This document shows, piece after piece, positions 4,762 through 28,629 of a stretch of DNA of 64,000 nucleotides. This stretch comes from an uncultured bacterium (GTDB lineage: Bacteria > Chlamydiota > Chlamydiia > Chlamydiales > 2-12-FULL-49-11), in the NCBI GenBank assembly GCA_964552055.1, contig CAZKFL010000005.1:4184-68183 (forward strand). Reading direction: 5' to 3'. How positions within the stretch are numbered: position 1 is the first letter of the stretch; each line of letters opens with the position of its first letter. The notes under the pieces were generated by a model, which saw nothing but the letters and a program-made list of their open reading frames with translations, was not told where the DNA came from and made no database searches. The position numbers and the translations under genes are program-made.

Positions 4762-4901
4762 TGCAATTTATCGAAGCGAGAAATAACCCGCATTTATCGC
4801 AAAGAGAAATTGCAGATCGCGAGTCCGGTAGGATGGGCGGATCAGTGCTCTGCACGGACGCCCGAGCGATATGCAATTTATCGAAGCGAGAAATGCGGGT
4901 T
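4757..4901. repeat. Second repeat family: 28-bp direct repeat x2 plus complementary 11-mers
   Basis: cgatatgcaatttatcgaagcgagaaat occurs at 4757-4784 and 4867-4894. aacccgcattt (4785-4795) is the exact reverse complement of aaatgcgggtt (4891-4901). 4763-4784 can also pair (17/22) with 4792-4813. Confidence 0.85.
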
Positions 4902-10900: not shown

Positions 10901-11772
10901 GATGAGTTACTAAGAGTAAAAGTCCCACCAGTAAGCTTAGTAATACCCCAACCTGAATTCGCAGAAAAGAGACCCGCATAGGAGCCTGAATTTAAAGTAA
11001 GCGTGTTACCGGCCAAACTTACAAAGGAGCCCGCATCCCCAGTTAAACTTGCTATAGAGCTATTATTCCCATTTAAAAAAAGAGCACCGCTTGTCATGGC
11101 AAAAGCGGAACTACTTGAGAGGCCAGCTGCACTACCTGCGCTGAGAGTTCCTTGAATTGTTGTTGCGCCTGAATAAGAGGAAGTTCCCCCTAATGTGAGT
11201 GAATTATTGCTTCCAATTGTAAGGCCACCTGCTCCACTAATATTTCCATTAAATGTCGATGATGCATTGCCATTTATCGTCAGAAGTGTGGTAGTCGCAA
11301 TTGATCCAGTCCCTGAAAGTGAATTAATTGTATTCGCAGCATTATTTAAAGTTAGAGTTCCAGAACCTAAAGTAAGATTTCCAGCGGAAATAGCCCCCGT
11401 AATTGAAATACCCGTTGCCCCAGGCGTAATCGTAATATTGTTTGTCGAAAAAATTAATCCGCAAGATATAGTGGCGCCTCCCGTACCACTGTTACTAATG
11501 CTACTTGTAACAGCCAAAGGACTGCCAGAGATTGTATAAGCACCCGTTGAATTAAATGCTAAGGTTGCAATACTCAAACCGGAAATATTCACACTAGGCT
11601 GAAAGGTAGGAGCCGCAGATGTAAAATTTGCAATTCCACTGGGAACTGCAGCCCCTGACCAATTTCCTGTCAAATTCCAAGCAGTAGACGTACCACCAAC
11701 CCAAATGCCATCAGCTGCACAAAGCTGTACTGCAAGAAGACCACAGGCAATTATATATCTGCTAATTTTCAA
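4900..11772 (-). CDS. Giant classical (type Va) autotransporter adhesin-like protein
   Basis: The 2290-aa ORF uses a TTG start and has a signal peptide (MKISRYIIACGLLAVQLCAADG). It carries dozens of autotransporter-associated beta-strand (PATR-like) repeats, e.g. LEKVGAGTLELSGINTYTGDTTISGGAIQI and FTKTGTSTLTFT..KTYTGATTIAAGTLAAG. The C-terminal ~290 aa have alternating beta-barrel character and end in GAQIGIRF, with the terminal aromatic residue typical of OM barrels. Confidence 0.9.
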   Translation of the reverse strand: MKISRYIIACGLLAVQLCAADGIWVGGTSTAWNLTGNWSGAAVPSGIANFTSAAPTFQPSVNISGLSIATLAFNSTGAYTISGSPLAVTSSISNSGTGGATISCGLIFSTNNITITPGATGISITGAISAGNLTLGSGTLTLNNAANTINSLSGTGSIATTTLLTINGNASSTFNGNISGAGGLTIGSNNSLTLGGTSSYSGATTIQGTLSAGSAAGLSSSSAFAMTSGALFLNGNNSSIASLTGDAGSFVSLAGNTLTLNSGSYAGLFSANSGWGITKLTGGTFTLSNSSNSTSITAPGTITITGGTLSAAAGALPNSSTVSVGAAGILSNTGLNSISILNGSAGAQVSLSSALTLTTGGTYVGTITTSNSSPLTLPSGTFNFNGAASTAPIAMSGSSTLNITGATTITGLSTTATTPIVNLGANLTINVPISTTSSYAGVLNAVTPGTNTLVLSGAGTFELNNSNYLGTLALIGLSNGTLLIGSSNALNGDTRLGISSNGILDVNGKNIELNFLISGDSTGKVKLNGGGITMTPSGGSCSYNGIIIDGATTPTMATLSFTINQLAFLTAGLNTYTGITTIQDSGAWVAGAVNTLSPNSLFTLSSGALNLVTYNNQIANLTGSGAITLIGSALQLGPTYTGLTNQSFSGTFNLITSGGLTVNFSNSLSSFSVGANVFPVSAPNIDLIVTNGIFEITGSNTVNTLSGLGGEVRLTGSGVNLSIVGPSCTYEGSITGTGGLALSGFSLTLKNATQNSSSYSGPTTITGGAILYGGSANTFSTKSVITFTDSFLGGELSLNNFDNTVANLSSTAALMGSVALTNSNTLTLSGLGSGSSQSFAGPITDNGGLPGGSLTISAPCAITLTGVSGGTTYYGTTTVYGTLSAGGSNVFSANSLVNVASGGALQLNGNSNSNVIANLTGSGFVNLAGSTLSLGGDNASQTFSGILAANADGWGLTKNGTGTFTLAGSQTITNTGTITINSSGGISAGAGTLPNTATVSFPAGVGNTGNLTISGANTIANLTDLTLTAGATSLTLNDINTTLTIGYPGTANPTGNFYGAITGAGGLTFANSVNYTLYTTGLNQNTYSGVTTINSGVLSAGTADALSHSSALFLESYTSLQLNNNSATIASLAGNSPSTVNFGGGGGTLTINTGVPTPTTTTFAGAIAGTGSLVITGSTGTLILSRSSSYGGTTTVSGGILQMGIVDALPTSIYTAVTLSGGTLALNGYPTHIASLTGTTNVTLGASTGILTMVTGGTSYSGVISGSGGVTLSAGTFTTSGANTYGGTTTIAGNWTTGGTTLSSNSMVQMSSGTLTLTSGPNTIANLNGTGTIVSTTALTFGGDNNAGTYNSTAWTGAANITKAGSGVFTLSGTSTYSGNTLVTGGTFKAGAAAAFSAGSLVNLSSGTTLSLNSNANTILDLTGTGTVYLGNATLTLANPTSTFSGSIVGITTIHGGLTKNGAGTFTLAETGQALYGDLTTINAGTLQAGAISAFASMSTVYFPLAAGTLNLAGFPNTIGGLIGTGGSSVTLGGGKLTVGFNGTSTAFSGIISGGGGLEKVGAGTLELSGINTYTGDTTISGGAIQIYQDSGLGNVAGSLIFNNGTLTNIAGNFSSGRAVTLTGPGTISLSLGGVLTLSGTMTGSGTFTKTGTSTLTFTTNGIKTYTGATTIAAGTLAAGSTQAFSATSDVTVLTGATLNLASFSNTIGNLSGAGTVNLGTGTLTLGNSNSTVFSGGMSATAGNLIKLGAGSFTVSGTCAYTGTTAVNAGTFVVNGSVSSSATTVASGATIKGVGTIAGSVTVSGIIEPGNSIGTLHVGSYTALSGSTYNVELSQVTSDNIIATGAVTINSGATLNVIPQRGTYDPSHAYEVINAAGGLTGTFTNVITPSDRTDVVTQYTSDILYLYLTVKSAVEIGEGFNARQVGYVIDSISDANIAAWVEPLDDLFDLSQTELKVALNELCPAQLKGLAIIQQNNAVRVQNGISLRFQNLLDRKHCPHVKGCKINSNPVYLWIDGFNSKLRQPSNFIDTNPQVGYHTSSGGGSIGLDFNVAKHGYIGIMGGGTYTDVKWYKDQGSGHVTSGYLGVYGSAIGTLTFINASLLGSTNNYIASRKIVYTGVNTTAHSNHNGTQLLTHLDGGLNINCFGFTIRPFESMDYIIQHERPFTETGAGVYDLDVHKTNPQIFRNELGINFARCFNISNRSRIIADIKLSWVSENRITGTLFTSSFVDFPQTFLTEGYYPNRSLFSPGAALTGNFAQDSAYITVTYDADLGHQYLDQRTGAQIGIRF

Positions 11773-11792
11773 CTATATACCGCTTATTTTAA

Positions 11793-13355
11793 CTACTTTA
11801 GCTCTATCATAATGTTATGGGCTGAAACGATAATTTTATATTTATCGGGGAATTTCATTGTGGCAAATGAGCCTACTATACCATCCCCTGCAGATACAAT
11901 TTCATAAGAAGATCCAGAGGTGAAGGTAGAAGGTGGAGCAATATTAAGCGTAACATTATCCCCAATGATAAATTTTCCGGTTGTAGTAAGCGATTCATTT
12001 GATTCAAGATTTACTTCTAAAGTTGAATCAGAGCATTGTGAATAATTCCCCACAATAACCATTTTATCGGGTTTACAAAGCCCAAGATTTTTTACATCTC
12101 CAACAATAATGCCATTTCCTTGAAGAGTTGCGCCAGACTGTATTGTTACGCTCGAATTAATCATTCCCGTTAGATTAAAAACACCTTCAGTAATTGTTGT
12201 AGGTCCAGAATATGTGCTTAAACGAGAAAGAGTTAATGAGCCCTTTCCATTTTTAACAATTCCACCAGCACCTGAAATAGTACCGTCAATTAGAGAGTCA
12301 TTATCATCTGAAAGGGTTAGTATTGCCCTCCCAAGCTTTACCTCGCCACCGAGCAGTCCTCCTCCATTTATTGAAGGAATTGTACAATTATTTCCTGCTA
12401 AATCTAAAACGGCGCCATCCATATTAGCAATTTGAATGGAAGATGAAGAAGGAAAGGCATTCATAATTCCTGCTCGCAAGGTGCCATTATCAATTTTAAT
12501 TGGACCTGCAAATGAATTTTTTGGGCCAGATAAAGTTAAAGTTCCGATGCCAACTTTTACAAGGCCGCCCTCACCAAAAATGGAACCATTGTACACTGTA
12601 TTTGTATCATCACCAACAGTAAGAGTTGCACTACCTAGTAAAATATTGCCACCAAGATTTCCGCCGCCACTTAAACTAGCAATCGTATTATCGTAGTTAT
12701 TCAAGTCCAAGACAACACCCGATGTATTTAAAATCACAACTCCAGAAACAGGTGAAAATACATTCTTCCCATTGGCTTCTAATATCCCACTTTGAATTGT
12801 CGTTAATCCCCTATAACTATTCAAACCCGAAAGAGTTAACTTAGCTTGACCCTGTTTAGTGATTCCACCATTACCCGTAATCTCACCTGTAATCAGGCAA
12901 TAATCTTTTTCTCTACTGCAATTAGGATTTGTAATATTAGCGCTAATCACAATCGTATTCTCTAACTCGAGTAAAGAGTTAATCTCCGCCTTACCAGTCA
13001 CCAAAATTGAGTCGTAAACATTTAACTGACCTGAAGATAAGCTATACAAATACTCACTATTTATAACGATAGATTTAACACTTACAGTTCCATCGACAGT
13101 AATCTTTGCTGGCCTAGATAAAATAAAAGGGGGAAATGTTGCAACATCATTTCGACCATCTGGATAAAGCGCGTTCAATCCTGAACCTGGCACCCAATCT
13201 TTTTCCTCCTTCCACTTTCCGCCCCCATCATTTTTCCACGTAGCAGAACCTGCTAAAAGACCCACCTGCGTAAGACTTAAAATTCCAAAACCCAAAAGGC
13301 AAACTGCATTTCTCAAAAAATACCCCCACAAAACAATTAACTGTCCTAAAAGCAA
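11793..13355 (-). CDS. Autotransporter passenger-like protein lacking a translocator beta-barrel (start codon uncertain, non-ATG)
   Basis: The 520-aa ORF has a signal-like N-terminus (LRNAVCLLGFGILSLTQVGLLAGSATW). PATR-like repeats include ITKQGQAKLTLSGLNSYRGLTTIQSGILEANG, LVKVGIGTLTLSGPKNSFAGPIKIDNGTLRAG and IVKNGKGSLTLSRLSTYSGPTTITEGVF. Its C-terminal module (SGATLQGNGIIVGDV...YEIVSAGDGIVGSF) parallels the pre-barrel module of the neighbouring gene (SGATIKGVGTIAGSV...YEVINAAGGLTGTF), but the ORF stops there. Confidence 0.7.
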   Translation of the reverse strand: MLLGQLIVLWGYFLRNAVCLLGFGILSLTQVGLLAGSATWKNDGGGKWKEEKDWVPGSGLNALYPDGRNDVATFPPFILSRPAKITVDGTVSVKSIVINSEYLYSLSSGQLNVYDSILVTGKAEINSLLELENTIVISANITNPNCSREKDYCLITGEITGNGGITKQGQAKLTLSGLNSYRGLTTIQSGILEANGKNVFSPVSGVVILNTSGVVLDLNNYDNTIASLSGGGNLGGNILLGSATLTVGDDTNTVYNGSIFGEGGLVKVGIGTLTLSGPKNSFAGPIKIDNGTLRAGIMNAFPSSSSIQIANMDGAVLDLAGNNCTIPSINGGGLLGGEVKLGRAILTLSDDNDSLIDGTISGAGGIVKNGKGSLTLSRLSTYSGPTTITEGVFNLTGMINSSVTIQSGATLQGNGIIVGDVKNLGLCKPDKMVIVGNYSQCSDSTLEVNLESNESLTTTGKFIIGDNVTLNIAPPSTFTSGSSYEIVSAGDGIVGSFATMKFPDKYKIIVSAHNIMIELK

Positions 13356-15094: not shown

Positions 15095-15412
15095 ATGACT
15101 ACTATTATTATTATCAACCAAACAATCAATGATGTACAATTAATTACCCCAAATAAAAATTCAACGCCTAATCTCGGCACCTGGACTGGCACAACAACGA
15201 CTATCCAGCCAATCCCTACTATATACTATAAAGTCCCCACTAAAACAAAAGCTCAAGGAACATTTACAGGAACTATAATAACTCTTAGGATAGTTGGAGG
15301 AACTCTTTATAACATAGATTTTAACATTCCCACTTACACTTCACCAGATAATGTCATGAGCTGTTCCGGAGATACAACTACCTATACATGCACTTTTAGC
15401 GATGCTTCATAA
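15095..15412 (+). CDS. Hypothetical Thr-rich small protein (weak call)
   Basis: The 105-aa ORF is preceded by aaaaagggataactaca (SD-like AAGGGA). It has low-complexity T/I-rich composition and no recognisable motif. Its 3' end overlaps the gpsA 3' end by 31 nt. Confidence 0.35.
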   Translation: MTTIIIINQTINDVQLITPNKNSTPNLGTWTGTTTTIQPIPTIYYKVPTKTKAQGTFTGTIITLRIVGGTLYNIDFNIPTYTSPDNVMSCSGDTTTYTCTFSDAS

Positions 15413-16377
15413 TCAGCGATTGCCTTTAGCATTTGTGCAAAACCTTCTTTAGGATTTTGGTTCTCATAGAGAATGTGGTACATGGCTGAAATGATGGGGA
15501 GATCTAGGGAGTGTTTTTTGGCAATGTTGTAGGCGGAGAGAACTGTATACTCACCTTCTACGACCATGCCGATTTTTTCTTTTGCGTGGGTGGCTGTGCC
15601 GCCCTGTCCAAGTAGAGTGCCGAATGTGTAGTTACGGCTGAGGTTGGAGACTCCGGTAACGATCAGGTCACCGATCCCGGCTAGTCCGTAACAGGTTTCT
15701 TCTTTTCCACCTTTAATTTTAGCAATTGCGCACATCTCTTTTAGGCCTTGCGTGATGATCAGCGCTTTTGTGTTATAGCCATATGATAGCCCTTCTGCAA
15801 GTCCAGATGCGATGGCAATTACGTTTTTGATAGAACCGCCAACTGCTGTTCCGAGAACATCAAAGCTCTCAGCTATATGAAAATTGGGAGACTGAAACAC
15901 TTCTTTAATAATTTCTATAACCTCTGCACTAAGACTTGCACCTACTGCAGCAGACGGCTCTTTAAACATCACTTCTTTTGCTAAGGTAGGTCCGCTCATG
16001 CAGCCAATTAATTGTTTATCGCCAAAAATTTCATAGGCAACTTCTACAAGAAGTTTGCCAGTTTCTTGTTCTATCCCTTTAGAAGTGATAATAAATGGGA
16101 TATTTACAGATTTTAATGCTTCGCATACAGGTCTAAATCCCTTAGCAGTTACGCATTCGACAATGACATCGCACTCTGAAATATCGGCTAAATCTCTTGT
16201 ATAAGTAATACTCGGAGAAACAAGGAAGTCTTTAAATTTGGGGTGGCGATGAAACTCTTCTAAATGGGCAAGCACATCTTCTTCAATGGACCAGAGAACA
16301 ACATTATGTCCATTTCTTGCGATTAAATCAGCGAGGGTAATCCCCCATGCGCCGCTTCCTAGAAATCCAACTTTCAT
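15382..16377 (-). CDS. gpsA: NAD(P)H-dependent glycerol-3-phosphate dehydrogenase
   Basis: MKVGFLGSGAWGITLA provides the Rossmann GxGxxG motif, followed by the LAKEV and GDLIVT blocks typical of GpsA. I prefer the ATG at 16377 over the TTG at 16380 used in the track. Confidence 0.9.
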   Translation of the reverse strand: MKVGFLGSGAWGITLADLIARNGHNVVLWSIEEDVLAHLEEFHRHPKFKDFLVSPSITYTRDLADISECDVIVECVTAKGFRPVCEALKSVNIPFIITSKGIEQETGKLLVEVAYEIFGDKQLIGCMSGPTLAKEVMFKEPSAAVGASLSAEVIEIIKEVFQSPNFHIAESFDVLGTAVGGSIKNVIAIASGLAEGLSYGYNTKALIITQGLKEMCAIAKIKGGKEETCYGLAGIGDLIVTGVSNLSRNYTFGTLLGQGGTATHAKEKIGMVVEGEYTVLSAYNIAKKHSLDLPIISAMYHILYENQNPKEGFAQMLKAIADYEASLKVHV

Positions 16378-16381
16378 CAAA

Positions 16382-18192: not shown

Positions 18193-18678
18193 ATGAAAAA
18201 AATACTAGGAATCGATCCCGGCACAAAAATTACTGGCTGGGGAATCATTACCTTTCAAAATAACAGGTATTCATTAATTGACTGCGGCACAATACTGCCG
18301 AACCCAAAAGTCCCCCTCGAGCAAAAATACCTTCACATCTATGACGAACTCACCTCGATTATCCAAATTCACACCCCAGATACGCTCTCTATAGAAAGCC
18401 AATTCATGGATAAAAACTTCCAAAGCGTAAGCCTTATCGCTATGGCGCGGGCCATAGCCTATCTTGCCGCAGCCAAACAAAACCTTCCCATTTTTGAATA
18501 CGCCCCTACTAAAGCAAAAAAAGCGGTAACAGGCAAAGGTAATGCTACAAAAGCAGCTGTTGCCCACATGGTTAAAATCCTCCTGAAACTCCCCCCTCAT
18601 CCCCTTGCTGAAGATACTACTGACGCGCTCGCCCTTGCAATCACCCATGCCCACTTTTCCACAAGGCCAAAAATTTGA
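18193..18678 (+). CDS. ruvC: Holliday junction resolvase RuvC
   Basis: The 161-aa ORF has ILGIDPGTKITGWGII (catalytic Asp block) and DTTDALALAITH near the C-terminus. Confidence 0.92.
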   Translation: MKKILGIDPGTKITGWGIITFQNNRYSLIDCGTILPNPKVPLEQKYLHIYDELTSIIQIHTPDTLSIESQFMDKNFQSVSLIAMARAIAYLAAAKQNLPIFEYAPTKAKKAVTGKGNATKAAVAHMVKILLKLPPHPLAEDTTDALALAITHAHFSTRPKI

Positions 18679-18709
18679 CGGTAATTTTGAGGGGCTGTAT
18701 AGTGGCGTC

Positions 18710-19297
18710 ATGTACGATTCGATTAAAGGGCTTATTGCTCATCTCACCCCTGAATATGCAGTCTTGGAAAATAATGGGATCGGCTACAAGGTCTTTATCC
18801 CGATCTCTTTATATACAAGTGGGATCGCGTTAGGATCTAATTGCCAGCTATTTACAGAACTTGTAGTGCGCGAAGATGATATGAAGCTTTATGGCTTTAT
18901 TTCTAGACAGGAAAGAGAGCTTTTTATGTTACTGACTTCGATTTCAGGAATTGGGGCAAGGACCGCGATTTCAATTATTGGACATGTTTCAGTCAATGAT
19001 CTCCATGATGCTGTTCAGTTAAAAAATACAGCTTTGCTTTGCAAGATTCCAGGGATTGGCAAAAAGAGCGCAGAAAGACTCGTACTTGAATTACGAGATC
19101 GAATTAAACCTGACACGAATACAAAGATCAGCAAAAATGAAAATCATGGCCTGATGAGCGATGCAACTTTAGCTTTAATTCGTCTTGGCTATAATCAAAA
19201 GGTTGCGGAATCAGCCATCAAAAAGGCCATGGATGGCGTTTCTCAAGAAAACATCGGCCTTCCCAAACTCATTACTTCAGCCCTAAAAAACATCTAA
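18710..19297 (+). CDS. ruvA: Holliday junction branch-migration protein RuvA
   Basis: MYDSIKGLIAHLTPEYAVLENNGIGYKVFIP forms the OB-fold N-terminus, and LTSISGIGARTA / IPGIGKKSAERL are HhH motifs. The internal ATG at 18710 is chosen because the track's 18605 start would overlap ruvC. Confidence 0.9.
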   Translation: MYDSIKGLIAHLTPEYAVLENNGIGYKVFIPISLYTSGIALGSNCQLFTELVVREDDMKLYGFISRQERELFMLLTSISGIGARTAISIIGHVSVNDLHDAVQLKNTALLCKIPGIGKKSAERLVLELRDRIKPDTNTKISKNENHGLMSDATLALIRLGYNQKVAESAIKKAMDGVSQENIGLPKLITSALKNI

Positions 19298-19449
19298 CCT
19301 GAATCATGTTTATTGACGACTGCTGCGCGCTGAACTAACAAAATACTATTTACTTGATCGACTGCGCGGAGCAGCAGCCTTTCACGTAACCGTAACCGAC
19401 CCCGTAAGCGTAACCGATTTTCCTTTTTTTAAAGATTTTAACCAGGCTC

Positions 19450-22400
19450 TTAGACTCTAAGGAAGATGGTATGGGGCTCTCTTATTGAGCGAATCTTATA
19501 AATGATATTTTGTAATGTGCTGCTTTGAAGAGAAGTTGATTTATGATGGGGGGAAATAAATGCCTTTAGAGCAGATAAGTCCGCTCTAAGTAGGTAGTCT
19601 GTAAGAATTGCTTCTTCCTTGGCGTCATAATATGTATGGCCAAATAGGAATTTAACTTGTAAAAAGATTTGCTCCAATTCAGGGGATTTTAGCAATTCTT
19701 TATTTACCCGTATTTTTCCTTCAGCAACTATGAGTTTTGTATTGATATCAACAATTGCTTTTATTTCCGTTGGAAGGTTCATTTCACTTCTTTCTTTTCG
19801 CAAAAGTTTGCGCTGCTCTCTAGCTTCCTCCGCAGAAAGAAGGATAAACTGGGTAAAGAGCCCCTCCTCATCAAATACTAATAGTGCTTCTAAAATTGGT
19901 ATTTGGAACTCATCAAAGGCAATCTTAGGAGTTGGCATTAGGTTATTAGATAGGATGATCCTGCGGTCTATTTCTGCGGCTATTGGCCTTATTTGATGAT
20001 TTACATGTCCTTTTAAAACATTTGCAAGTGAAAAGATTGTATGAGAAGCGCTTGGCGTAAGTATCTCGGGCCTTTCTGTATAAGTTAATTTCGAAGGCCA
20101 TTTTTTATGAAGAACAGACTCTCTTTTTTCCCTTTCATGTTTTACATGTTCCTTTACTTCTTGCTTAAGTTCCATTTTTTCTTTTTCCACTTCAAGTTCA
20201 GCTGTTGCCTGTGAAACTGTTACTTGCTGCCTAGCGCTACAATCAATTTTTTCTCGTTTTAAGACAGATTGTGGGTAGAAATTATGACCTATTCTCAGAA
20301 GACGCTCACTAATTTCCAAAAGCTCTCTATCTCGAAATAATGAGCTTGCTTGCGCCTCTCTATATAGGTGGCGCCTTAGATTTTCAAACACCTCAGCAGG
20401 TGTTGCATACACATCAATTCCACCAAAAAAGCGGGTCGGATTACCTGTATTTTCATTTAAGAAAATAGATTTAAATGATCTAATGATTTGTATCATCTTT
20501 TTAACATCTTTAGCTTCTATCGCTTTATCAAGAACTGCTCGCTGTATAACATTATGAAGGGCGGCTATATCAGAAGCAAAATTGTCTTCCAAACTTTCTT
20601 TTCCTTGATTTAAGAGGCAAAACGAAATGATTTTTTCAATTGTTAACTCGTCATCTCCTGCAATAAGCGCCTTTGTATAACCTGTTGTAATAAATTCAAT
20701 ATCTTGGTCTTTTGTTTTTAATCCACGCATTCTCCATATAGCTTGAAAAAGCTCTTCTGCAAGCGTAGATTCACCCACTGTAACAACTGCTTTGGTCTGA
20801 ATTCCTTGAACAATGTCTGCCGCGAATGTATGGCTTTGATCAAAGTAGGTAAGCCGATCTTCTGGAGGTATTTTACTCTCTTTAAAAGGCATTGGGGCTC
20901 CCCTTCCTTTTTCCCAAATCATCTGCTCTTTTTTTACATTATAAAATACGACTGCTTTAAGATCTGTTTTTTCGATGTGTCTTAAAAGAGTTCTTGCAAC
21001 AATCTCGTTTGATATCCCATTAAAAACAGCGCCCCTATCAATAATTGCTTTAAAACTAGAGCCTTTAGCAAAGAATCTGACGCAAATTTCATCTAATGCT
21101 TTGGAGGGGGCATCATCTAAAAGTGTATGACAAAGAGAATTTCTCTCCACAAGAAGAGAAACCGTCTCCCCTTGTGTTCCAGGATCTTTAAGCACAACTG
21201 AACCTTCAGGATAGGTTCCTGCATTATAAGGAGAAGCTGTGTAGCCGCTAAAACTTTTAAACATGGATGCCAAATTGTGGGCATTGTTAGAAATACTGTA
21301 ATTATAATACCGAATCTGGTCCCGTACATGAATTCTGCAGTAGTCAAGGACAATAAAATCTGATTGATTTAGATTTTCATAAATAGCATCTTTTTCAAGA
21401 GGTGAGAATGAAAAAAGGTCATGCCCTTTAGAATGGGTTTTAAAATAATTCCCTGCTTCCGTGTGATTCAGCATATCTAATGTATGGCCTGGAACTCTAT
21501 CTAGCTCTGCCTTTGCTTTTGCTTTTAGACTATCTATAAATTTATCTAACTGCGTTTTATTCAATCTATCGGAAAGGAAGAGAATAGCTGTCTTTAAAAA
21601 GGCTGAAAATTGAATCTTATAGGTGGACTCAACTTCTGGATTTTCGTTACCATCAGATGGTTTTGCAAATTCTTCACTTCCTTCCTTAAGAGTCGCATAA
21701 TTGACATGGACAATTTCTGAAAGAATACTTGGAAGAAGGGTATTTAGAGCTCCTTTAATAAGATCGATTCGCTCATCACTTTCTTTGTAGAATGCCTCAT
21801 TCAAAAAATAGCGCTCTATTGCTTCATTACCCCTTGATAAGACTCTTGCAAGAAGAGGCAATATATCCCTTTTATAATCTTCTTCTTTAATTCTTCGCGG
21901 AGTTTCTGATCTTAAAGATAAAACGTCAAGAAGAGCTAACATCACCTCTTCAAGAATTTCTGCGTGCTCCTTTGCAAGGGGTTTTGCTATTCCAAGTGGG
22001 TAGTTTAGCTCTGTTTTCCGATCAAATTCAATGTGAGCCTCATCAATATTAACGTTTGCATGTTTTCTGAGTTTAAATAAAATCTTTTGGAAAAGCTCTA
22101 ATCTTTCAAGCCAGCTACTTTTATCTTCTTTTTCAAAACTGCCTAAAACATCTAATCCTTCTTCTAAAAACCGTAGTTGTAATGCCTGAAACTGCTCTTT
22201 AGTTCCGTCCCAAATCCCTCTTCTTTCTATCATCTCATCTATATGAAGATTGAGCGCTTCTAATCTTTCTACTGTCCAACCAGATCTTGTGAGCGGAATT
22301 ACACTTGTTATTTGCTCAAAAAGCTCAAAAGAAACCTCTGCACTTTTTTCCGTTGCACTGAGAGCAATTGCGCTTGGACGAAGATTAATCACAATACTTT

Positions 22401-25400
22401 CGCAATCAGCATCAATGACATCCTTAATCGGCATAAGTGTTGCAGTCTTGCCAATTCCCATAATCGCTTCACATACTTTTCTAGGATCTGCAGAGTTAAG
22501 CAAATTGATCAAAGGCCCATACTGCCTTTGCCAAATAAGGGTCTCGGCCTTTGCTTCAAAAACAAGAAAAACTCGTAAATGTCTTTCTGAGATTTCATTG
22601 AATTTATAAGCTCTTTTTACAGATGACCGTTTGAAATAAGCGTTCCACCTTGAACGAGAGACTAGATGGAGGGTGATTTTCTGATCATATTTTGTTTTAT
22701 GACCCATAACATAATGAATGAGAATTTCTCTAAATGGTAAACCTATTAAGCTTTCTAACTCACTTTCCTCCATTGCAAGACTTTCAAAAATAGTTTTCTT
22801 ATCACCAACAAATTTATGTGTAACTCCTGAATATTGCGGTAATTCAGTGTATAGAGTAATACTTTCATTGAGTTTTTCAAATTCCCTTGCAATCGCCGCA
22901 TCACTTGTTAATGGGTATACAAATTGGAAAGGTCTATTAGCAACCCATTCAATTCTTTCTCCTCCTTGCAAGGTTAACTGTTCATCAATTTCTGCCTCCC
23001 TCCTAGAAAGCTCTGCAAAAGCCTCTCCACTAATAGCTTCTTTTAAAATGGAAGGTTTTTCTGCGGGTTTAGGAAGATCTGGGAGCGCTACTTTTTGAAT
23101 CAGCCGAACTGCTTTATAAGTTGTATGTCCCATTTTGATACCGCGAAGTAGGGGGCTTACATAAAAAGGAAGTGCTTTTAAAACAGTTGAGCCGATATAT
23201 GAAGTGATCTTATTTAAAGCAAAAGATTTGGTAACGCTTTTTAACACACTGAAACCAACTTTTGGCAATATCGAACGAAGAACAGTTTTTGTGGTACAAA
23301 GCCGAATTAAGCGCTTTTGTACAGTTTTACAAACTAGCGAACTTGGGTGAGGAAATATAAGCTTTGGATGACTTGATTTTGATAGAGTCTTAAGTATAAA
23401 AAAGAGCAGCCCGATTGATTTATCAGAAAATTTCCCATGGAACTGCTGAATCGTTTTAGCTAATTTTTCATGACCCTCTTCTTTGTTATACAAAATGAAG
23501 TAATACCTAATAAAACGATTATGAAGAGAGTTTGGAGTAAGTGCGCTCCGATTTAGTGGAACCTTATAAAACATTGCATTAGGGACAAACAAAAGAGCTG
23601 TCTTATCACTAAAAAGAGTTGTCTCATCACTAAAAAGAGTTGAGAGATACGGGTGATCCATAGCATCTAAAAGTTTTGGCATATAGGAAGTGGTAGTACT
23701 TTGCTCTAAAAAAGGCAAGGATGGCAAGGACTTCAAGAAGGGCAGTGAAGGCACTGTAAAATCACAGCTATCACTATCTGTCAATTTATGAATAAGAGCT
23801 CTTTCTGCTTTATAGCGCCAAGAACTATGTTGATCTCCATGTATTCTTCTAAGAAGTTGGTAGCGAAGACTACAGACAGGCAGCATAGCGAGATTTCTTA
23901 CGCAATGTTTAAATGGGTCAAGCTGCGCTGGAATCTTACAATGAGCAGTTATATACTTTAAAATAAATAGTTCGTCATATTCAGTTAGAAATTTTTTCCC
24001 TTCCGTAATATACGAGCTATATACAGATTGAATCATTGCCCAAAGAGCCATTTCAATTTGCAAATTCTCCTCTTTAATAGGCGCTACACTCTGAAGAAGG
24101 GTGTTTTTATGTAAAATTGCAACCAATTTGAGAAAAATGGGAGCCCTGCTATTCATCGAAAATTCCAAAAATAAAATACATTTGATATATTCTTGTGTAT
24201 CTTTACAAAATGGTTTTCTATGAGCAATACGAGCTAACCCGCTAAGGCTGAGTAAAGCATTTTTTTTATCTTTTCTCGTAATATAATGCAGAGTAAGAAA
24301 GGCCATTGCTGCGGGCTCTTCAGAAGTAAGCTCTCCCTTTTCATTAAATGAATAACTATAATATTTCGAAGCAAAAAAACTAGCAGTAGCTACTTTTTCA
24401 AGGAAAGTAGAAAGAAACGCTTTTTGCTCATGCATAAAGTGTTTTCCAAAAATCACTTTAATATCTGGGACCGGAATACAAATACGCCGCTCTAAAGTTG
24501 CCTCTGATTCGAGCACTAAATAATTTACAAAAGCTGAAAGCCTTACATCCTTTTGAACCTTAGATAAAGCGTAAGAACTTAATTGAGGATCCCTTGGATA
24601 GGCGCTGTACTTTCCCCCCTCTTCTCTTACATCGAAAATCAACTTCATGGTATTAAATTCGATACTTTTAACAAAATTCCCTTTGCAAATGATTTTTACG
24701 TCATCCAAAGATTGGAACCAACTTAAAAGATGCAGATGATGCCCTTCTATAGCTGGATCTAAAACCCATTCATCCAAAACTGTGCTCTGTAAAGCAGATT
24801 GGTTTTCCCCATTACTTATAGGAGGAGTGGGGATTCGCGGTTTTTTTCTTCGTTCTAATACATACCCCTTCCAAGAAAAAATAAGTTCTTTTGCCCGAAC
24901 AAAATCATCTTGAAGTAACTTAGGTACGTTTTCTAAATTATAAATATCAATTATAGAATCTAATATAAGTACTAGATCCTCAATTTCAGCTTTAATGGAA
25001 TCAGGGGCATTTTCAGGTAAATAGTCTAAATACATTCCCGCAATTACAAATTTCGATAGGTTTGAACTAAAATTCTCTTTTATAATAGCGCTAAAATCCG
25101 GTGTATGCTTACGTATTTCAGGATCATGATCTGCAGCAAGCGCTATAAAATCACCTGCCACATGAGCAACAAATAAGGCGATATCCTCGTTTTTTGAAAC
25201 TTCTTCAAATAACTTTAAAAATGCATAACCAATCTCTCTTAATAAAGAGTTTCGCTCATCAAAAGCAGCTTTTATTAAAGAGGGTCTTAAAACAAACGTC
25301 TGAAAATGGAAAGCAACTGCAGGCTTTGTTAAGGATATTGGATTTTGTCGAATTAAGCTAATACCCCTTACAATTTGATCTGATGGAACAAGTTCTGCCA

Positions 25401-28400
25401 TATCAATAAGAAACTGGAGGTCTCTTTCAACTTCATAAATATATTGAGGCATGCTAACAACTAGCTCACTTTGAGTTAGGCCTCTTTTTTGATAACCTCG
25501 AGTGAAAAATGGAAATTTTGCAGATCTAAAATTTGGTAGCTGCTCTGAAGTCCAAATTTTATGCTCAGTAAAAAGCCCTCCAGTTGCTCTCCTAAATCTT
25601 GCTTGCATCGGAAAATAAACTTCATCTTTCAGCCAAGTAAAACGTGGTAGCCCCACAATATTGTTAGCGCCATCATCTGAAGAATGATAACATAAAAGCG
25701 CTCGATATGCAATTACATGTATTTGCCTTAAATAATAATACGGTTTTAATTCGGGGCACTCGCAAAATAGATAAAGAGCCTTCTCTGACTCTAACTTTGA
25801 AGGATCTATAATTGATGCAATGTCTGGTAATCTTCCTATCAGGGCAGTTGCAAGCTTAGCCCTAGGAACTCTTAACAAATATTGCTCATCTACTTTAGGA
25901 AGATGCGCATGAGATAGCTGCTCAGTGAATTCAAATAAAGCAGGAGGGAACGAATCTTCTATTTTATAAATTTGATCCGGATCTCCCTTGAAATAAGCAG
26001 AAATTGCTCTTTGCTTCATTCTTGTTCTTGCTCGTATCGCTCGTACGCCCGAAGAATTTTGCCAAAGTAGGAATGTTCGTCCATTTGCTAAATACGTCTT
26101 AGGAATTCTAAAGGTTGTTTTAGGGTGCTTTGCTACCCTATCCATAGCGACATAAATTGTATATAAAGAAATTACCAACTCGATTTTTTCATCAATAGTA
26201 AGTCCGGAATCAAAAAACCAACGCAATAAATTGTGCAAACCTTCCAATACTGCATCAGGATTATCTATCTCATCCCAAATCTCCGATTGAGGTTCACCCG
26301 GAATGGGCAAATTCCGCAATTGCTGATTGAGAAAGTGGCCCCACTGCCTTGGAGTCTTCAAAGAAAGTATTATAGAGTTCCATTCTTCTAGTATACCCAC
26401 CAAATTTTCACTAGTAATCGGTGTAATTTCCAAATACCTTACAACTCTATCCTCCTCATCAATTTCCGCAACAGGAATAGGAGGCGTGTTACTAATCACA
26501 GGGGAACTGCTACTTTGCTGCGTATTAAGAGGAGCGCTTTTTCTAGTAACTCTAAAATCAAGTTCCCCACCTCTTGTAAATTCACTTTGAAGGGCTAATA
26601 ATTTCCCTTTGATATCGTCTAAGAACTCCTTACTAAGAATCATACGAGAACCAAATCTAAGAAGCATGACGGTGATATGTCGTTCAATTGCTTTAAGAGT
26701 TTCGTGATAAATCGTAAATATTTTGACTACCGGCTCAATCCAATTAGGTGGAAGGTACCTAGCAAGAACCGGAACGCCATACATTAAAAGAAGACTGCAT
26801 AAATATCGTACTGGCACTGAAAGAACTAAATTCAAACCGGGTAAAGCAAATGTAATGAGGTTTACCAAGCAATCTAAAATTACGGTCCAGGATACCCATT
26901 CTGCCATAAACGTAGAAACTCTAGATGCAAGCCGGTAAAGATGAAGAAGAGAAATGCGCATGCCTTTAATTTCAGAAATAAAATTTTTATGAAAATTTTC
27001 TGAAATTTTTCTTGATGAGGTTACCTCTGCCTTACTCGGACCTTGTTTAGAAATTCGCTTTGGGATTTCTTCTAAAAGTTCATTTAATGCCTCTGTAGTA
27101 TCTTTTCCTAAAACGGCACTAAGAACTTCCTTTAAATAGACGATATCTGAAGCATTTGGCCCTAAATCCTCTACAAGCCTCTGAATAAATGGGGGAAGAA
27201 TTGTCAATTCCTTTTCACTACGAAGGATAGGCAAGGCAGCTATTTCCTCTCTACTTTTTGACTCAAAAAGATCTGCAATTAATGCAGACTCAATTTTCCG
27301 TCCAGAAAATGACTCCAGCATTGCAAAAGTTGATTTGCAATTCATTTGCGGCCTAATTGTTTTCCCTTTTATTTGAAGAAGATCATTTAAAGTTAAGACA
27401 ACATCTTTAACTGTGTACTCTATCGCCTCACCTCGTTCAACGCAGCTAGATAAGTGAAGAAATGCTGCCCAAAACCTAGTCCCAATCATCTTCTTAGGAA
27501 CGTGTGAGTAGGTTAGCGGAAGTTTTACACCATCTAATCTACCCGCACTATCATCACCATGGATTGTTACAGAATAGTAAGATTCAGACTCACAATTTAC
27601 CTCAATCCAAAACTCATTATTACTTACGCTTGCAAGACCTGCTGCTTCTAATGGCCCCTGCATAAAGGGAGGCGCAAGATCAGACATCTCTTTAATTAGA
27701 CCATTTGCAGAACTCTGAAGCCGCTCGTAAATAGCTGAAAATCCAGATTCGAAAGATTTCTTTAAAACCTTTTCTACGCTTTCATCCATTACTTTTTGTA
27801 AAACGCTGCCTTTTAAACGCTCACCCAAAACTTCATTATAATCTTTTCTTAAACTTTCAATAACAGCTGGATATAGCTTTTCAGGAAGTACTTTTTGCAG
27901 CCCAAGAGATGCTTCCTTCATCCCGGCATAAAGCATTTCTTTATACCCTTCAATACCTTGACTTAACTCTCTAATATCGCTATTTTCAAGAAATTCCTTT
28001 TCTATCTCATCAATGAACTTTTTTGGGTCTTGAATTAGGTTCAGTGCCATTTCAGGCACAATACCCTTCCAAAATGGTGGGACTTGCATCGGTTTCCTAA
28101 TACGCCCAATAAATACAAAGGATCTACCCACACTTTCTTTTTTAGCCTTTATGGAAAGCTCTCTAGCAGTTATAGCAGAAGTTGCTACTCTGTTTTTTAG
28201 CTGAAGTGCTGCTCTAAATGTCTCAAAAATTCCATGAGGAAAAGCAGCTCCTCTCTCTAATAAAAATCGAATTAACTCTAAAACAACATCGCTATCAAAA
28301 CTTCCATCTACAATAGCTCTCCGAACTCTAAAAGTAGCAGGTGCCTTAGATCTATCATAAGAGGCACCAATAATTCCTTGAACAATGCCTACTCTAGCGG

Positions 28401-28473
28401 GTATTAATGAATCATCGGGTCGAATTCCAATTGTTCCGAATATACCAGGTCTTTTAGATCCATCAACTACCAT
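19450..28473 (-). CDS. Giant protein A (3007 aa): N-terminal region, hydrophobic hairpin, long helical region, SF2/SNF2-like NTPase motif set; function unknown
   Basis: This is an uninterrupted 9-kb ORF. The hydrophobic hairpin FMAEWVSWTVILDCLVNLITFALPGLNLVLSVPVRYLCSLLLMYGVPVLA lies at aa ~522-570 (26767-26913). NTPase motifs are Walker A IMGIGKTATLMP (22444-22461), DEAH in NIDEAHIEF (22033-22044), FSGYTAS, and the motif VI-like FQAIWRMRGLKT (20719-20745). It is colinear with the ORF at 28630-37464. Confidence 0.85.
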   Translation of the reverse strand: MVVDGSKRPGIFGTIGIRPDDSLIPARVGIVQGIIGASYDRSKAPATFRVRRAIVDGSFDSDVVLELIRFLLERGAAFPHGIFETFRAALQLKNRVATSAITARELSIKAKKESVGRSFVFIGRIRKPMQVPPFWKGIVPEMALNLIQDPKKFIDEIEKEFLENSDIRELSQGIEGYKEMLYAGMKEASLGLQKVLPEKLYPAVIESLRKDYNEVLGERLKGSVLQKVMDESVEKVLKKSFESGFSAIYERLQSSANGLIKEMSDLAPPFMQGPLEAAGLASVSNNEFWIEVNCESESYYSVTIHGDDSAGRLDGVKLPLTYSHVPKKMIGTRFWAAFLHLSSCVERGEAIEYTVKDVVLTLNDLLQIKGKTIRPQMNCKSTFAMLESFSGRKIESALIADLFESKSREEIAALPILRSEKELTILPPFIQRLVEDLGPNASDIVYLKEVLSAVLGKDTTEALNELLEEIPKRISKQGPSKAEVTSSRKISENFHKNFISEIKGMRISLLHLYRLASRVSTFMAEWVSWTVILDCLVNLITFALPGLNLVLSVPVRYLCSLLLMYGVPVLARYLPPNWIEPVVKIFTIYHETLKAIERHITVMLLRFGSRMILSKEFLDDIKGKLLALQSEFTRGGELDFRVTRKSAPLNTQQSSSSPVISNTPPIPVAEIDEEDRVVRYLEITPITSENLVGILEEWNSIILSLKTPRQWGHFLNQQLRNLPIPGEPQSEIWDEIDNPDAVLEGLHNLLRWFFDSGLTIDEKIELVISLYTIYVAMDRVAKHPKTTFRIPKTYLANGRTFLLWQNSSGVRAIRARTRMKQRAISAYFKGDPDQIYKIEDSFPPALFEFTEQLSHAHLPKVDEQYLLRVPRAKLATALIGRLPDIASIIDPSKLESEKALYLFCECPELKPYYYLRQIHVIAYRALLCYHSSDDGANNIVGLPRFTWLKDEVYFPMQARFRRATGGLFTEHKIWTSEQLPNFRSAKFPFFTRGYQKRGLTQSELVVSMPQYIYEVERDLQFLIDMAELVPSDQIVRGISLIRQNPISLTKPAVAFHFQTFVLRPSLIKAAFDERNSLLREIGYAFLKLFEEVSKNEDIALFVAHVAGDFIALAADHDPEIRKHTPDFSAIIKENFSSNLSKFVIAGMYLDYLPENAPDSIKAEIEDLVLILDSIIDIYNLENVPKLLQDDFVRAKELIFSWKGYVLERRKKPRIPTPPISNGENQSALQSTVLDEWVLDPAIEGHHLHLLSWFQSLDDVKIICKGNFVKSIEFNTMKLIFDVREEGGKYSAYPRDPQLSSYALSKVQKDVRLSAFVNYLVLESEATLERRICIPVPDIKVIFGKHFMHEQKAFLSTFLEKVATASFFASKYYSYSFNEKGELTSEEPAAMAFLTLHYITRKDKKNALLSLSGLARIAHRKPFCKDTQEYIKCILFLEFSMNSRAPIFLKLVAILHKNTLLQSVAPIKEENLQIEMALWAMIQSVYSSYITEGKKFLTEYDELFILKYITAHCKIPAQLDPFKHCVRNLAMLPVCSLRYQLLRRIHGDQHSSWRYKAERALIHKLTDSDSCDFTVPSLPFLKSLPSLPFLEQSTTTSYMPKLLDAMDHPYLSTLFSDETTLFSDKTALLFVPNAMFYKVPLNRSALTPNSLHNRFIRYYFILYNKEEGHEKLAKTIQQFHGKFSDKSIGLLFFILKTLSKSSHPKLIFPHPSSLVCKTVQKRLIRLCTTKTVLRSILPKVGFSVLKSVTKSFALNKITSYIGSTVLKALPFYVSPLLRGIKMGHTTYKAVRLIQKVALPDLPKPAEKPSILKEAISGEAFAELSRREAEIDEQLTLQGGERIEWVANRPFQFVYPLTSDAAIAREFEKLNESITLYTELPQYSGVTHKFVGDKKTIFESLAMEESELESLIGLPFREILIHYVMGHKTKYDQKITLHLVSRSRWNAYFKRSSVKRAYKFNEISERHLRVFLVFEAKAETLIWQRQYGPLINLLNSADPRKVCEAIMGIGKTATLMPIKDVIDADCESIVINLRPSAIALSATEKSAEVSFELFEQITSVIPLTRSGWTVERLEALNLHIDEMIERRGIWDGTKEQFQALQLRFLEEGLDVLGSFEKEDKSSWLERLELFQKILFKLRKHANVNIDEAHIEFDRKTELNYPLGIAKPLAKEHAEILEEVMLALLDVLSLRSETPRRIKEEDYKRDILPLLARVLSRGNEAIERYFLNEAFYKESDERIDLIKGALNTLLPSILSEIVHVNYATLKEGSEEFAKPSDGNENPEVESTYKIQFSAFLKTAILFLSDRLNKTQLDKFIDSLKAKAKAELDRVPGHTLDMLNHTEAGNYFKTHSKGHDLFSFSPLEKDAIYENLNQSDFIVLDYCRIHVRDQIRYYNYSISNNAHNLASMFKSFSGYTASPYNAGTYPEGSVVLKDPGTQGETVSLLVERNSLCHTLLDDAPSKALDEICVRFFAKGSSFKAIIDRGAVFNGISNEIVARTLLRHIEKTDLKAVVFYNVKKEQMIWEKGRGAPMPFKESKIPPEDRLTYFDQSHTFAADIVQGIQTKAVVTVGESTLAEELFQAIWRMRGLKTKDQDIEFITTGYTKALIAGDDELTIEKIISFCLLNQGKESLEDNFASDIAALHNVIQRAVLDKAIEAKDVKKMIQIIRSFKSIFLNENTGNPTRFFGGIDVYATPAEVFENLRRHLYREAQASSLFRDRELLEISERLLRIGHNFYPQSVLKREKIDCSARQQVTVSQATAELEVEKEKMELKQEVKEHVKHEREKRESVLHKKWPSKLTYTERPEILTPSASHTIFSLANVLKGHVNHQIRPIAAEIDRRIILSNNLMPTPKIAFDEFQIPILEALLVFDEEGLFTQFILLSAEEAREQRKLLRKERSEMNLPTEIKAIVDINTKLIVAEGKIRVNKELLKSPELEQIFLQVKFLFGHTYYDAKEEAILTDYLLRADLSALKAFISPHHKSTSLQSSTLQNIIYKIRSIREPHTIFLRV

Positions 28474-28629
28474 AATTCAATAATTATAGAACAATAACAT
28501 AAGGCGAAACAAGAGTTAAAATATAATATAAATAATATAAATTATTTTACTGAATGTTAAGCCTATTATTTATTTTAAATTAAATTGAATGTTTCGCTTC
28601 AAAAGCTATTATGATATAATCGCTTTATT
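28474..28629. promoter_or_regulatory. Shared divergent control region of the two giant genes, with mirrored TGTTTCGC box and TATAAT
   Basis: For the minus-strand gene, TATAAT is the reverse complement of 28483-28488, 9 nt from the ATG, and TGTTTCGC is the reverse complement of 28504-28511. For the plus-strand gene, TGTTTCGC lies at 28590-28597 and TATAAT at 28615-28620, also 9 nt from the ATG. The core between them is AT-rich, and neither gene has a Shine-Dalgarno sequence. Confidence 0.55.

Follow-up and report, generated by a model that had tools for sequence, protein, structure and literature searches.

Probable back-to-back promoters abutting the start codons of two divergent giant genes in an uncultured chlamydia, a likely source of near-leaderless mRNAs

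Here we describe the 156-bp spacer that separates the start codons of two divergent giant genes, A and B, of an uncultured bacterium of the order Chlamydiales (GenBank assembly GCA_964552055.1, contig CAZKFL010000005.1). It occupies positions 28474-28629 of a 64,000-nucleotide stretch of DNA, referred to as the window, whose numbering is used throughout unless another locus is named. This control region, with 18.6% G+C, probably consists of two back-to-back promoters of the housekeeping type, each set so close to its ATG that the resulting messengers would be near-leaderless, would lack a Shine-Dalgarno sequence and would probably begin with 5'-AUUAUG. Sigma-66, the housekeeping sigma factor of chlamydiae, is of the sigma-70 type, and it is to this factor that we would assign both promoters.

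The Divergent Control Region

Gene A (19450-28473, minus strand) encodes 3007 residues and gene B (28630-37464, plus strand) encodes 2944. Read towards either of them, the spacer presents the same succession of elements, namely the 8-mer TGTTTCGC, 15 or 17 nt, the hexamer TATAAT, 9 nt and the ATG, a mirrored layout that had been reported in the initial annotation and is right at every coordinate. On the side of gene A (minus strand), the first copy of TGTTTCGC (28504-28511, positions -35 to -28 of the predicted transcription start) is followed by a 15-nt spacer (28489-28503), the -10 hexamer TATAAT (28483-28488), the 9 nt TATTGAATT (28474-28482, read towards the gene) and the start codon (28471-28473, ATG as complement). 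On the side of gene B (plus strand), the second copy (28590-28597, positions -37 to -30), which is flanked by TTGAA and TTCAA, is followed by a 17-nt spacer (28598-28614), by the extended -10 element TGATATAAT (28612-28620, with TG at 28612-28613 and TATAAT at 28615-28620), by the 9 nt CGCTTTATT (28621-28629) and by the ATG at 28630. The TGn extension is present in gene B and not in gene A, and both sides of the spacer end in ATTATG.

This promoter-to-ATG layout is not due to chance. Using dinucleotide-preserving shuffles of both 78-nt half-spacers as the null model, a perfect TATAAT at an equal offset (3-15 nt) from both ATGs has a probability of p = 6.3e-4, and of p = 4e-5 when the 5/6 match found at the equal offset upstream of a homologous giant gene (that of locus L003, described below) is included. 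Beyond these core elements, the mirror symmetry is at most weakly significant: the local alignment of both spacer halves does not reach significance (p = 0.085), and the longest run shared in register is a 10-mer made only of A and T (p = 0.018).

Each promoter would be set mainly by its consensus -10, which is TATAAT in gene A and TGATATAAT, with its extension, in gene B. Owing to this extension, gene B would need no -35 element. The promoter of gene A would be helped at most by the TTG 18 nt upstream, where TGTTTCGC together with the T that precedes it (28512) makes TTGTTT, a -35-like word with 3 of 6 matches lying 18 nt from the -10. The 8-mer covers the -35 region of both promoters but is poor as a -35 element.

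RNA polymerase usually initiates 6-8 nt past the hexamer. With no more than 9 nt between the -10 and the ATG, transcription would therefore begin at the conserved A that precedes the start codon by three bases. This A is the seventh nucleotide after the -10 and corresponds to 28476 (minus strand) for gene A and to 28627 (plus strand, in a TAT context) for gene B; in both cases the predicted messenger begins with 5'-AUUAUG. A preference for starts of the YRY (pyrimidine-purine-pyrimidine) type, as well as an initiation window a few bases past the -10, has been described (PMC12641261). Folding of the predicted 5' ends (first 60 nt of the mRNA) is weaker than that of shuffled sequences (z = +0.75 and +0.98) and leaves the AUG unpaired in the centroid structures, and such messengers would be translated from an unstructured 5' end through a leaderless or 5'-end-dependent route.

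In agreement with the initial annotation, no purine-rich Shine-Dalgarno-like word occurs in the 20 nt before the ATG of either gene, and none of AGGA, GGAG, GAGG, AAGG or GGGA lies within -18 to -5. Clear Shine-Dalgarno sequences are found elsewhere in the window, as in the case of AAGGAG before 62670-63341 and GAGGTG before 15382-16380. The annotated ATGs are the only possible starts because in-frame stops stand at -6 for gene A (TGA at 28477-28479) and at -18 for gene B. Furthermore, the alignment of both proteins matches from Met1 onwards (M..D...RP.FG), so that mis-assigned start codons are ruled out.

The 78-nt centre of the spacer (28512-28589) has 11.5% G+C, in line with the A/T-rich character first ascribed to it. 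The repeats that had also been attributed to it do not form any direct-repeat family in a repeat search, which returned only A/T-rich imperfect inverted repeats, the longest having 34-nt arms (28504-28537 and 28564-28597) that are 74% complementary. This tract, 88% A+T, would place an A/T-rich arm upstream of each promoter, at about -36 to -61 for gene A (28512-28537) and at about -38 to -63 for gene B (28564-28589), where UP elements would be expected. The arrangement resembles back-to-back divergent promoters that share an A/T-rich tract, with outward -10 hexamers 126 bp apart and A/T-rich arms at about -36 to -63. It differs from them in that the symmetry of the spacer is only weakly significant beyond the core elements and any shared operator would be putative.

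Conservation Among Homologous Giant Genes

The upstream DNA was read for three other homologues, namely L003 (a Chlamydiae metagenome-assembled genome, MAG, obtained through a genome scan for mnmE relatives), L037 and L038, all of which derive from other metagenome assemblies of chlamydiae. The proteins of these three loci and those of genes A and B are 34-43% identical to one another. Upstream of all five stands the common pattern TAnAAT, 5-7 nt, ATTATG, which takes the form TATAAT-tattga-ATTATG in gene A, TTATGATATAAT-cgcttt-ATTATG in gene B, TTATGGTAGAAT-gttcgt-ATTATG in L003, TTATGGTATAAT-ttttg-ATTATG in L038 and TAGAAT-agggttc-ATTATG in L037. The word ATTATG is invariant (5/5), its first A lying 6-8 nt after the hexamer and the A of the ATG at 9-11 nt. 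The exact 9-nt spacing that had been taken as conserved between both genes does not hold in the family, where the distance from the -10 to the ATG is 8 nt in L038, 9 nt in L003, A and B, and 10 nt in L037; the constant trait is instead the A of ATTATG at 6-8 nt from the hexamer.

From TTATG to ATGGAA, gene B and its L003 homologue are identical at 20 of 27 bases (counted by eye), with a protein identity of 38%; as far as such a comparison of sequences goes, the promoter-proximal DNA is much better conserved in this family than the proteins. Moreover, the TTATGnTAnAAT of the extended -10 of gene B is found unchanged in L003 and L038. These two, gene B and the rlmN gene of the window share TGnTA(T/G)AAT with no recognisable -35, as do the known sigma-70 promoters of the extended -10 type (TGnTATAAT) that dispense with a -35. 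The likeness is incomplete, given that gene A and L037 lack the TG and that function with the chlamydial sigma-66 holoenzyme is assumed.

Two observations concern the homologous loci themselves. In L037 (3001-3037), the protein as called (ATG at 3001) begins with 12 additional residues, MFFFYLARIGFI, whose codons span the gene's own TAGAAT box; from the sequence, the true start is probably the ATG at 3037, which is preceded by ATT in the layout of the family, and the gene would then have been called 12 codons too long. In L003, the interval from the upstream gene to the promoter of the giant gene contains a perfect 40-bp tandem repeat (772-848, 1.9 copies of TGAATTGTGGGGTCAGGCCTCACATTTGACAATTTTGTTG), with an extra partial copy just upstream of the array (732-755).

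The comparison of loci also informs on the origin of the pair. L003 carries a single giant gene, on the same strand as mnmE, between mnmE and the orthologue of the open reading frame (ORF) 18605-19297, where the window has two; this synteny identifies the L003 gene, which lies upstream of mnmE, as the positional orthologue of gene B, gene A being an additional copy in inverted orientation. In L005 and L032, mnmE comes almost directly after the orthologue of ORF 18605-19297, at a distance of only about 490 bp. In L001, which has the closest mnmE relative, 2.4 kb of unrelated sequence occupy the site of the giant genes (window 18605-37495 compared). The number of giant genes thus varies among L001, L003, L005, L032 and the window, which implies repeated gain or loss at this locus. 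A protein fragment from a further locus (P0001/L035, ENA sample ERZ18668657), orthologous to the C-terminus of gene A and devoid of upstream DNA, is 64-71% identical to A and only 38-44% to B. The duplication would therefore predate the split from the organism of L035.

According to the reading that we favour, the promoter architecture would have been inherited within the giant gene family and kept through the inverted duplication that made gene A. That the promoter was carried along in the duplication, as initially proposed, is plausible from the TAnAAT, 5-7 nt, ATTATG pattern kept by all members; nevertheless, since the layout is generic in the clade, as described in the next section, convergence between A and B is also possible.

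A Layout Generic in Environmental Chlamydiae

We surveyed 446 first-ATG starts of ORFs of at least 150 codons in the window and in 32 chlamydial loci (L001-L032), considering as promoter-qualified a -10-like hexamer accompanied either by a TTG at 16-18 nt spacing or by TGn. In this set, -10-like hexamers peak 7-9 nt before the ATG. Per 100 starts, promoter-qualified ones number 2.5 at 7 nt, 1.3 at 8 nt and 2.0 at 9 nt, against 0-0.7 at most other offsets; a single secondary peak (1.8) stands at 33 nt. The profile of internal ATGs, used as control, is flat. Altogether, about 6.5% of the ORF starts have a promoter-qualified -10 located 6-9 nt before the ATG, including those of mnmE and secA in several lineages. 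Shine-Dalgarno 4-mers are absent from all 29 genes with this signature and present in 145 of the 417 others (Fisher p = 1.3e-5).

The base composition next to the start codon differs according to the distance. In the 7-nt class a pyrimidine directly precedes the ATG in 10 of 11 cases, so that the A of the ATG itself would likely be the transcription start and the mRNA truly leaderless. In the 9-nt class, 8 of 9 cases have A as the seventh base past the hexamer and all 9 have pyrimidines as the eighth and ninth, a pattern that would place the start three bases ahead of the AUG. The rlmN gene of the window (ATG at 40527; 40509-40529) belongs here, with TGATATAAT-N9-ATG as in gene B, and its orthologues in L001, L003 and L006 show TTGAC[TC]-N17-TATA[AC]T-N9-ATG with A at position 7, which amounts to a complete consensus promoter directly adjoining the start codon. 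The 9-nt distance is thus kept by rlmN in four genomes.

By this sequence survey, the layout is not special to the giant genes but generic in the clade, and the giant genes would represent one instance of a general leaderless-type class of environmental chlamydiae. The near-leaderless transcripts that the initial annotation had put forward as a possibility have become probable, given that the module is kept in L003, L037 and L038 and that many unrelated genes of the clade are organized alike, without Shine-Dalgarno words.

Short intergenic distances occur at another divergent pair of the window, psd (minus strand) and secA (plus strand), which are separated by only 40 bp (43434-43473), with TATAAA located 7 nt before the ATG of psd. 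With so short a spacer, both promoters must overlap it or the neighbouring gene.

The Shared 8-mer

The copies of TGTTTCGC are less easily interpreted than the -10 elements. A shared 8-mer with at least three G/C within 3 nt of register on either side has p = 0.0019, and p = 0.020 in any register, under a criterion set after the data had been seen. The word occurs twice in the window (1.77 expected) and 48 times when one mismatch is allowed (48.2 expected), as well as 21 times (about 20.8 expected) in the 682 kb formed by the window and the fetched loci, nearly all of them chlamydial. Within these 682 kb, the search for further copies ahead of a -10 and an ATG returned the spacer pair alone, and the aligned upstream regions of L003, L037 and L038 do not contain it. 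A clade-wide promoter motif is therefore rejected. A regulator-binding box or a -35 surrogate, as suggested in the initial annotation, is not supported in any general sense, with the background frequency of the word, its absence upstream of three homologues and the extended -10 of gene B.

No consistent palindrome accompanies the copies, since a 5-bp inverted repeat flanks that of gene B and none is found at that of gene A. A centromere-like parS site (TGTTNCACGTGAAACA) was also considered, TGTTTCGC being one base off its half-site TGTTTCAC, and rejected: the copies of the spacer stand in the wrong relative order, 78 bp apart, without a 16-bp palindrome, and the best matches in the window, which are located outside the spacer, carry 3 mismatches and do not exceed the chance expectation. 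To our knowledge, none of the sigma-28, sigma-54, extracytoplasmic-function (ECF) -35 'GAAAC' (opposite strand), CIRCE or Fur-like ATTATGATATAAT elements fits in both sequence and spacing, a comparison made by eye. The 8-mer may be a site for a regulator private to this locus, a part of the promoter that outlasted the duplication, either as a relic or under some constraint, or a product of chance, and co-regulation of A and B by a shared factor is to be seen as a possibility.

Weighing Alternative Explanations

Transcription could also start further upstream, in the A/T-rich centre, so that the genes would be preceded by A/U-rich unstructured leaders of 10-50 nt or more, without Shine-Dalgarno and possibly aided by S1, TATAAT being a mere part of the leader. 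A consensus scan supplies candidates for such starts, TTAACA-17-TATTAT towards gene A (28532-28560, minus strand, 10/12, leader of about 50 nt) and TTGAAT-16-TATTAT towards gene B (28585-28612, plus strand, 9/12, leader of about 10 nt), and lists neither of the ATG-proximal promoters, because the -35 match of each is below 4/6. The long-leader RNAs have no significant structure (z = -0.59 and +1.22), as would fit a Shine-Dalgarno-independent leader, and initiation by S1 on A/U-rich sequences is accepted for genes without Shine-Dalgarno (PMC5397173). We nevertheless hold this explanation to be quite unlikely. The region contains 4 sigma-70 consensus matches against 2.4 +- 1.4 in shuffles, that is, not above them, and the upstream matches are not conserved in L003, L037 and L038, whereas the ATG-proximal -10 and ATTATG are. 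Furthermore, it leaves unexplained both the equal offset of the two hexamers (p of 6e-4) and the class-wide coupling of an ATG-proximal -10 with a spaced TTG or TGn. A structured RNA leader or a known RNA element, such as a riboswitch or an attenuator, was discarded for its part, with no Rfam match at E <= 1 and folding z values from -0.59 to +1.22.

Other explanations bear on the 8-mer and its surroundings rather than on the position of the promoters. In one of them, TGTTTCGC would be the site of a dedicated regulator placed over both -35 regions and switching both giant genes jointly, which is compatible with near-leaderless promoters; the inverted copies, 86 bp apart from centre to centre or about 8 helical turns, might cooperate through looping. 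Both copies present in the window do lie in the spacer, in mirror orientation at -35 to -28 and -37 to -30, the in-register, G/C-containing 8-mer is unexpected in DNA of 18.6% G+C (p = 0.002-0.02), and the copy of gene B has its 5-bp inverted repeat TTGAA...TTCAA. Such a regulator is unlikely all the same, in view of a statistic defined post hoc, the lack of any other promoter-associated copy in the 682 kb (21 copies vs about 20.8 expected), the absence of the word upstream of L003, L037 and L038, the copy of gene A without flanking palindrome and the 2-nt difference between both sides in the distance to the -10; we know of no operator of chlamydial regulators that TGTTTCGC matches. Alternatively, and with a probability not far short of even, the 8-mer and the wider symmetry would be functionless, either coincidental, in a spacer of low complexity, or left over from the inverted duplication, perhaps refreshed by gene conversion between the two copies, with selection acting on the -10 and ATTATG only. 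This would agree with the non-significant alignment of the half-spacers (p = 0.085), with the A/T-only composition of the longest in-register run (p = 0.018), and with a word that is at background frequency elsewhere and is not conserved in homologues. The DNA identity of 70% over the opening 10 codons of A and B could be invoked as well; this value, in the top 7% of windows, is not extreme. Against this explanation, paralogues that have diverged to 34% protein identity and 50% identity in aligned codons should have had their neutral promoter DNA randomised, yet an exact 8-mer containing G/C persists in register (p = 0.002). Neither is there a clear gene-conversion tract: because the identity of the first 10 codons is only in the top 7% of windows, conversion between the 5' ends of A and B leaves no clear sign and was set aside.

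Two ATG-proximal, sigma-66/70-type promoters remain, in our view, the probable explanation of the spacer. Several points weigh against it. The start sites are purely predicted from sequence. Gene A lacks TGn as well as a good -35 (TTGTTT, 3/6 at 18 nt), its predicted +1 A is preceded by A instead of a pyrimidine, and the spacer holds the two alternative sigma-70-like matches mentioned above. In addition, messengers with 3-nt leaders are not leaderless in the strict sense, the A of the ATG itself lying 10 nt after the hexamer and outside the usual initiation window, and nucleotides added at the 5' end lower leaderless translation in Escherichia coli. The comparison within the family covers five members only, and more distant homologues (3400-3900 aa) do not have the layout: a textbook promoter, TTGACT-17-TGTATAAT, precedes the L042 start by 45 nt, and the TATAAT of L039 stands 14 nt before the start.

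The Giant Genes and Their Neighbourhood

Genes A and B are paralogous over their whole length, with 34% protein identity and 50% identity in aligned codons, gene A being the inverted paralogue. Their sole Pfam match is DUF3638. Within this region, the protein of gene A has the Walker A motif GxGKT at aa 2006 and a DEAH motif at aa 2144, and that of gene B has them at aa 1926 and 2064, respectively. Each protein also has one hydrophobic stretch of about 50 aa (aa 523-571), which can be likened to the bilobed membrane anchor of chlamydial inclusion-membrane proteins.

By word index these proteins are near-orphans. Word-index searches with the N-terminus of B, and with the N-terminal alignment of A, B and L003, gave no matches, and the C-terminal query gave one fragment, that of L035. 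A genome scan with the A/B alignment was equally without matches, a metagenome scan found the L003 contig again and nothing further, and an exact look-up of both proteins returned no record. The full HMMER scan gave 2490 matches, mostly of 3300-4300 aa, which include a few chlamydial-type proteins of about 3000 aa.

The neighbourhood is of the environmental chlamydia type, with a long PBP2-like protein, mnmE, rlmN, psd beside secA, kdpAB and proteins resembling autotransporters, and the mnmE product of the window shares 72-79% identity with its counterparts in freshwater Chlamydiae MAGs. The autotransporter-like surface proteins are encoded by two adjacent genes (4900-13355, 2290 and 520 aa) with passenger-associated transport repeats (PATR).

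Relation to Known Systems and Significance

Leaderless messengers have been mapped in pathogenic chlamydiae by differential RNA sequencing (dRNA-seq), amounting to 5 of 437 in C. pneumoniae (PMC3333780) and to 3 in C. trachomatis (PMC2817459). Moreover, a Pribnow box directly before the start codon has been discussed as a mark of leaderless genes (PMC5397173). The spacer shares with the leaderless or very-short-leader mRNAs a -10 within 10 nt of the ATG, the lack of Shine-Dalgarno, a predicted unstructured 5' end and the exclusion of Shine-Dalgarno in the class as a whole; it differs from them in its 9-nt distance and its conserved A at -3, which predict a 3-nt AUU leader rather than a start at the AUG. 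As a kind, then, the arrangement of promoter and start codon is known. What seems new is another example of it, together with its apparent commonness in environmental chlamydiae, possibly including a subclass with 3-nt leaders. About 1% of the mapped transcripts of pathogenic Chlamydia are leaderless (PMC3333780, PMC2817459), in contrast to about 6.5% of ORF starts with the predicted signature in the environmental loci sampled.

One may go further, although tentatively, and propose that environmental chlamydiae possess a distinct, conserved class of 3-nt-leader mRNAs (5'-A-Y-Y-AUG), whose transcription begins with an A at the set distance of seven bases past the -10 and whose translation dispenses with a Shine-Dalgarno sequence, that a family of giant membrane-anchored DEAH ATPases is expressed in this way, and that in the present case a private pair of TGTTTCGC operators is perhaps also involved.

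No new regulatory mechanism is revealed by this analysis. The layout constitutes a concrete and testable prediction of how two genes of about 3000 residues are expressed in an uncultured organism. Furthermore, it suggests that environmental chlamydiae resort to initiation of the leaderless type much more often than their pathogenic relatives do, a point that bears on the way in which start codons are annotated in environmental genomes.

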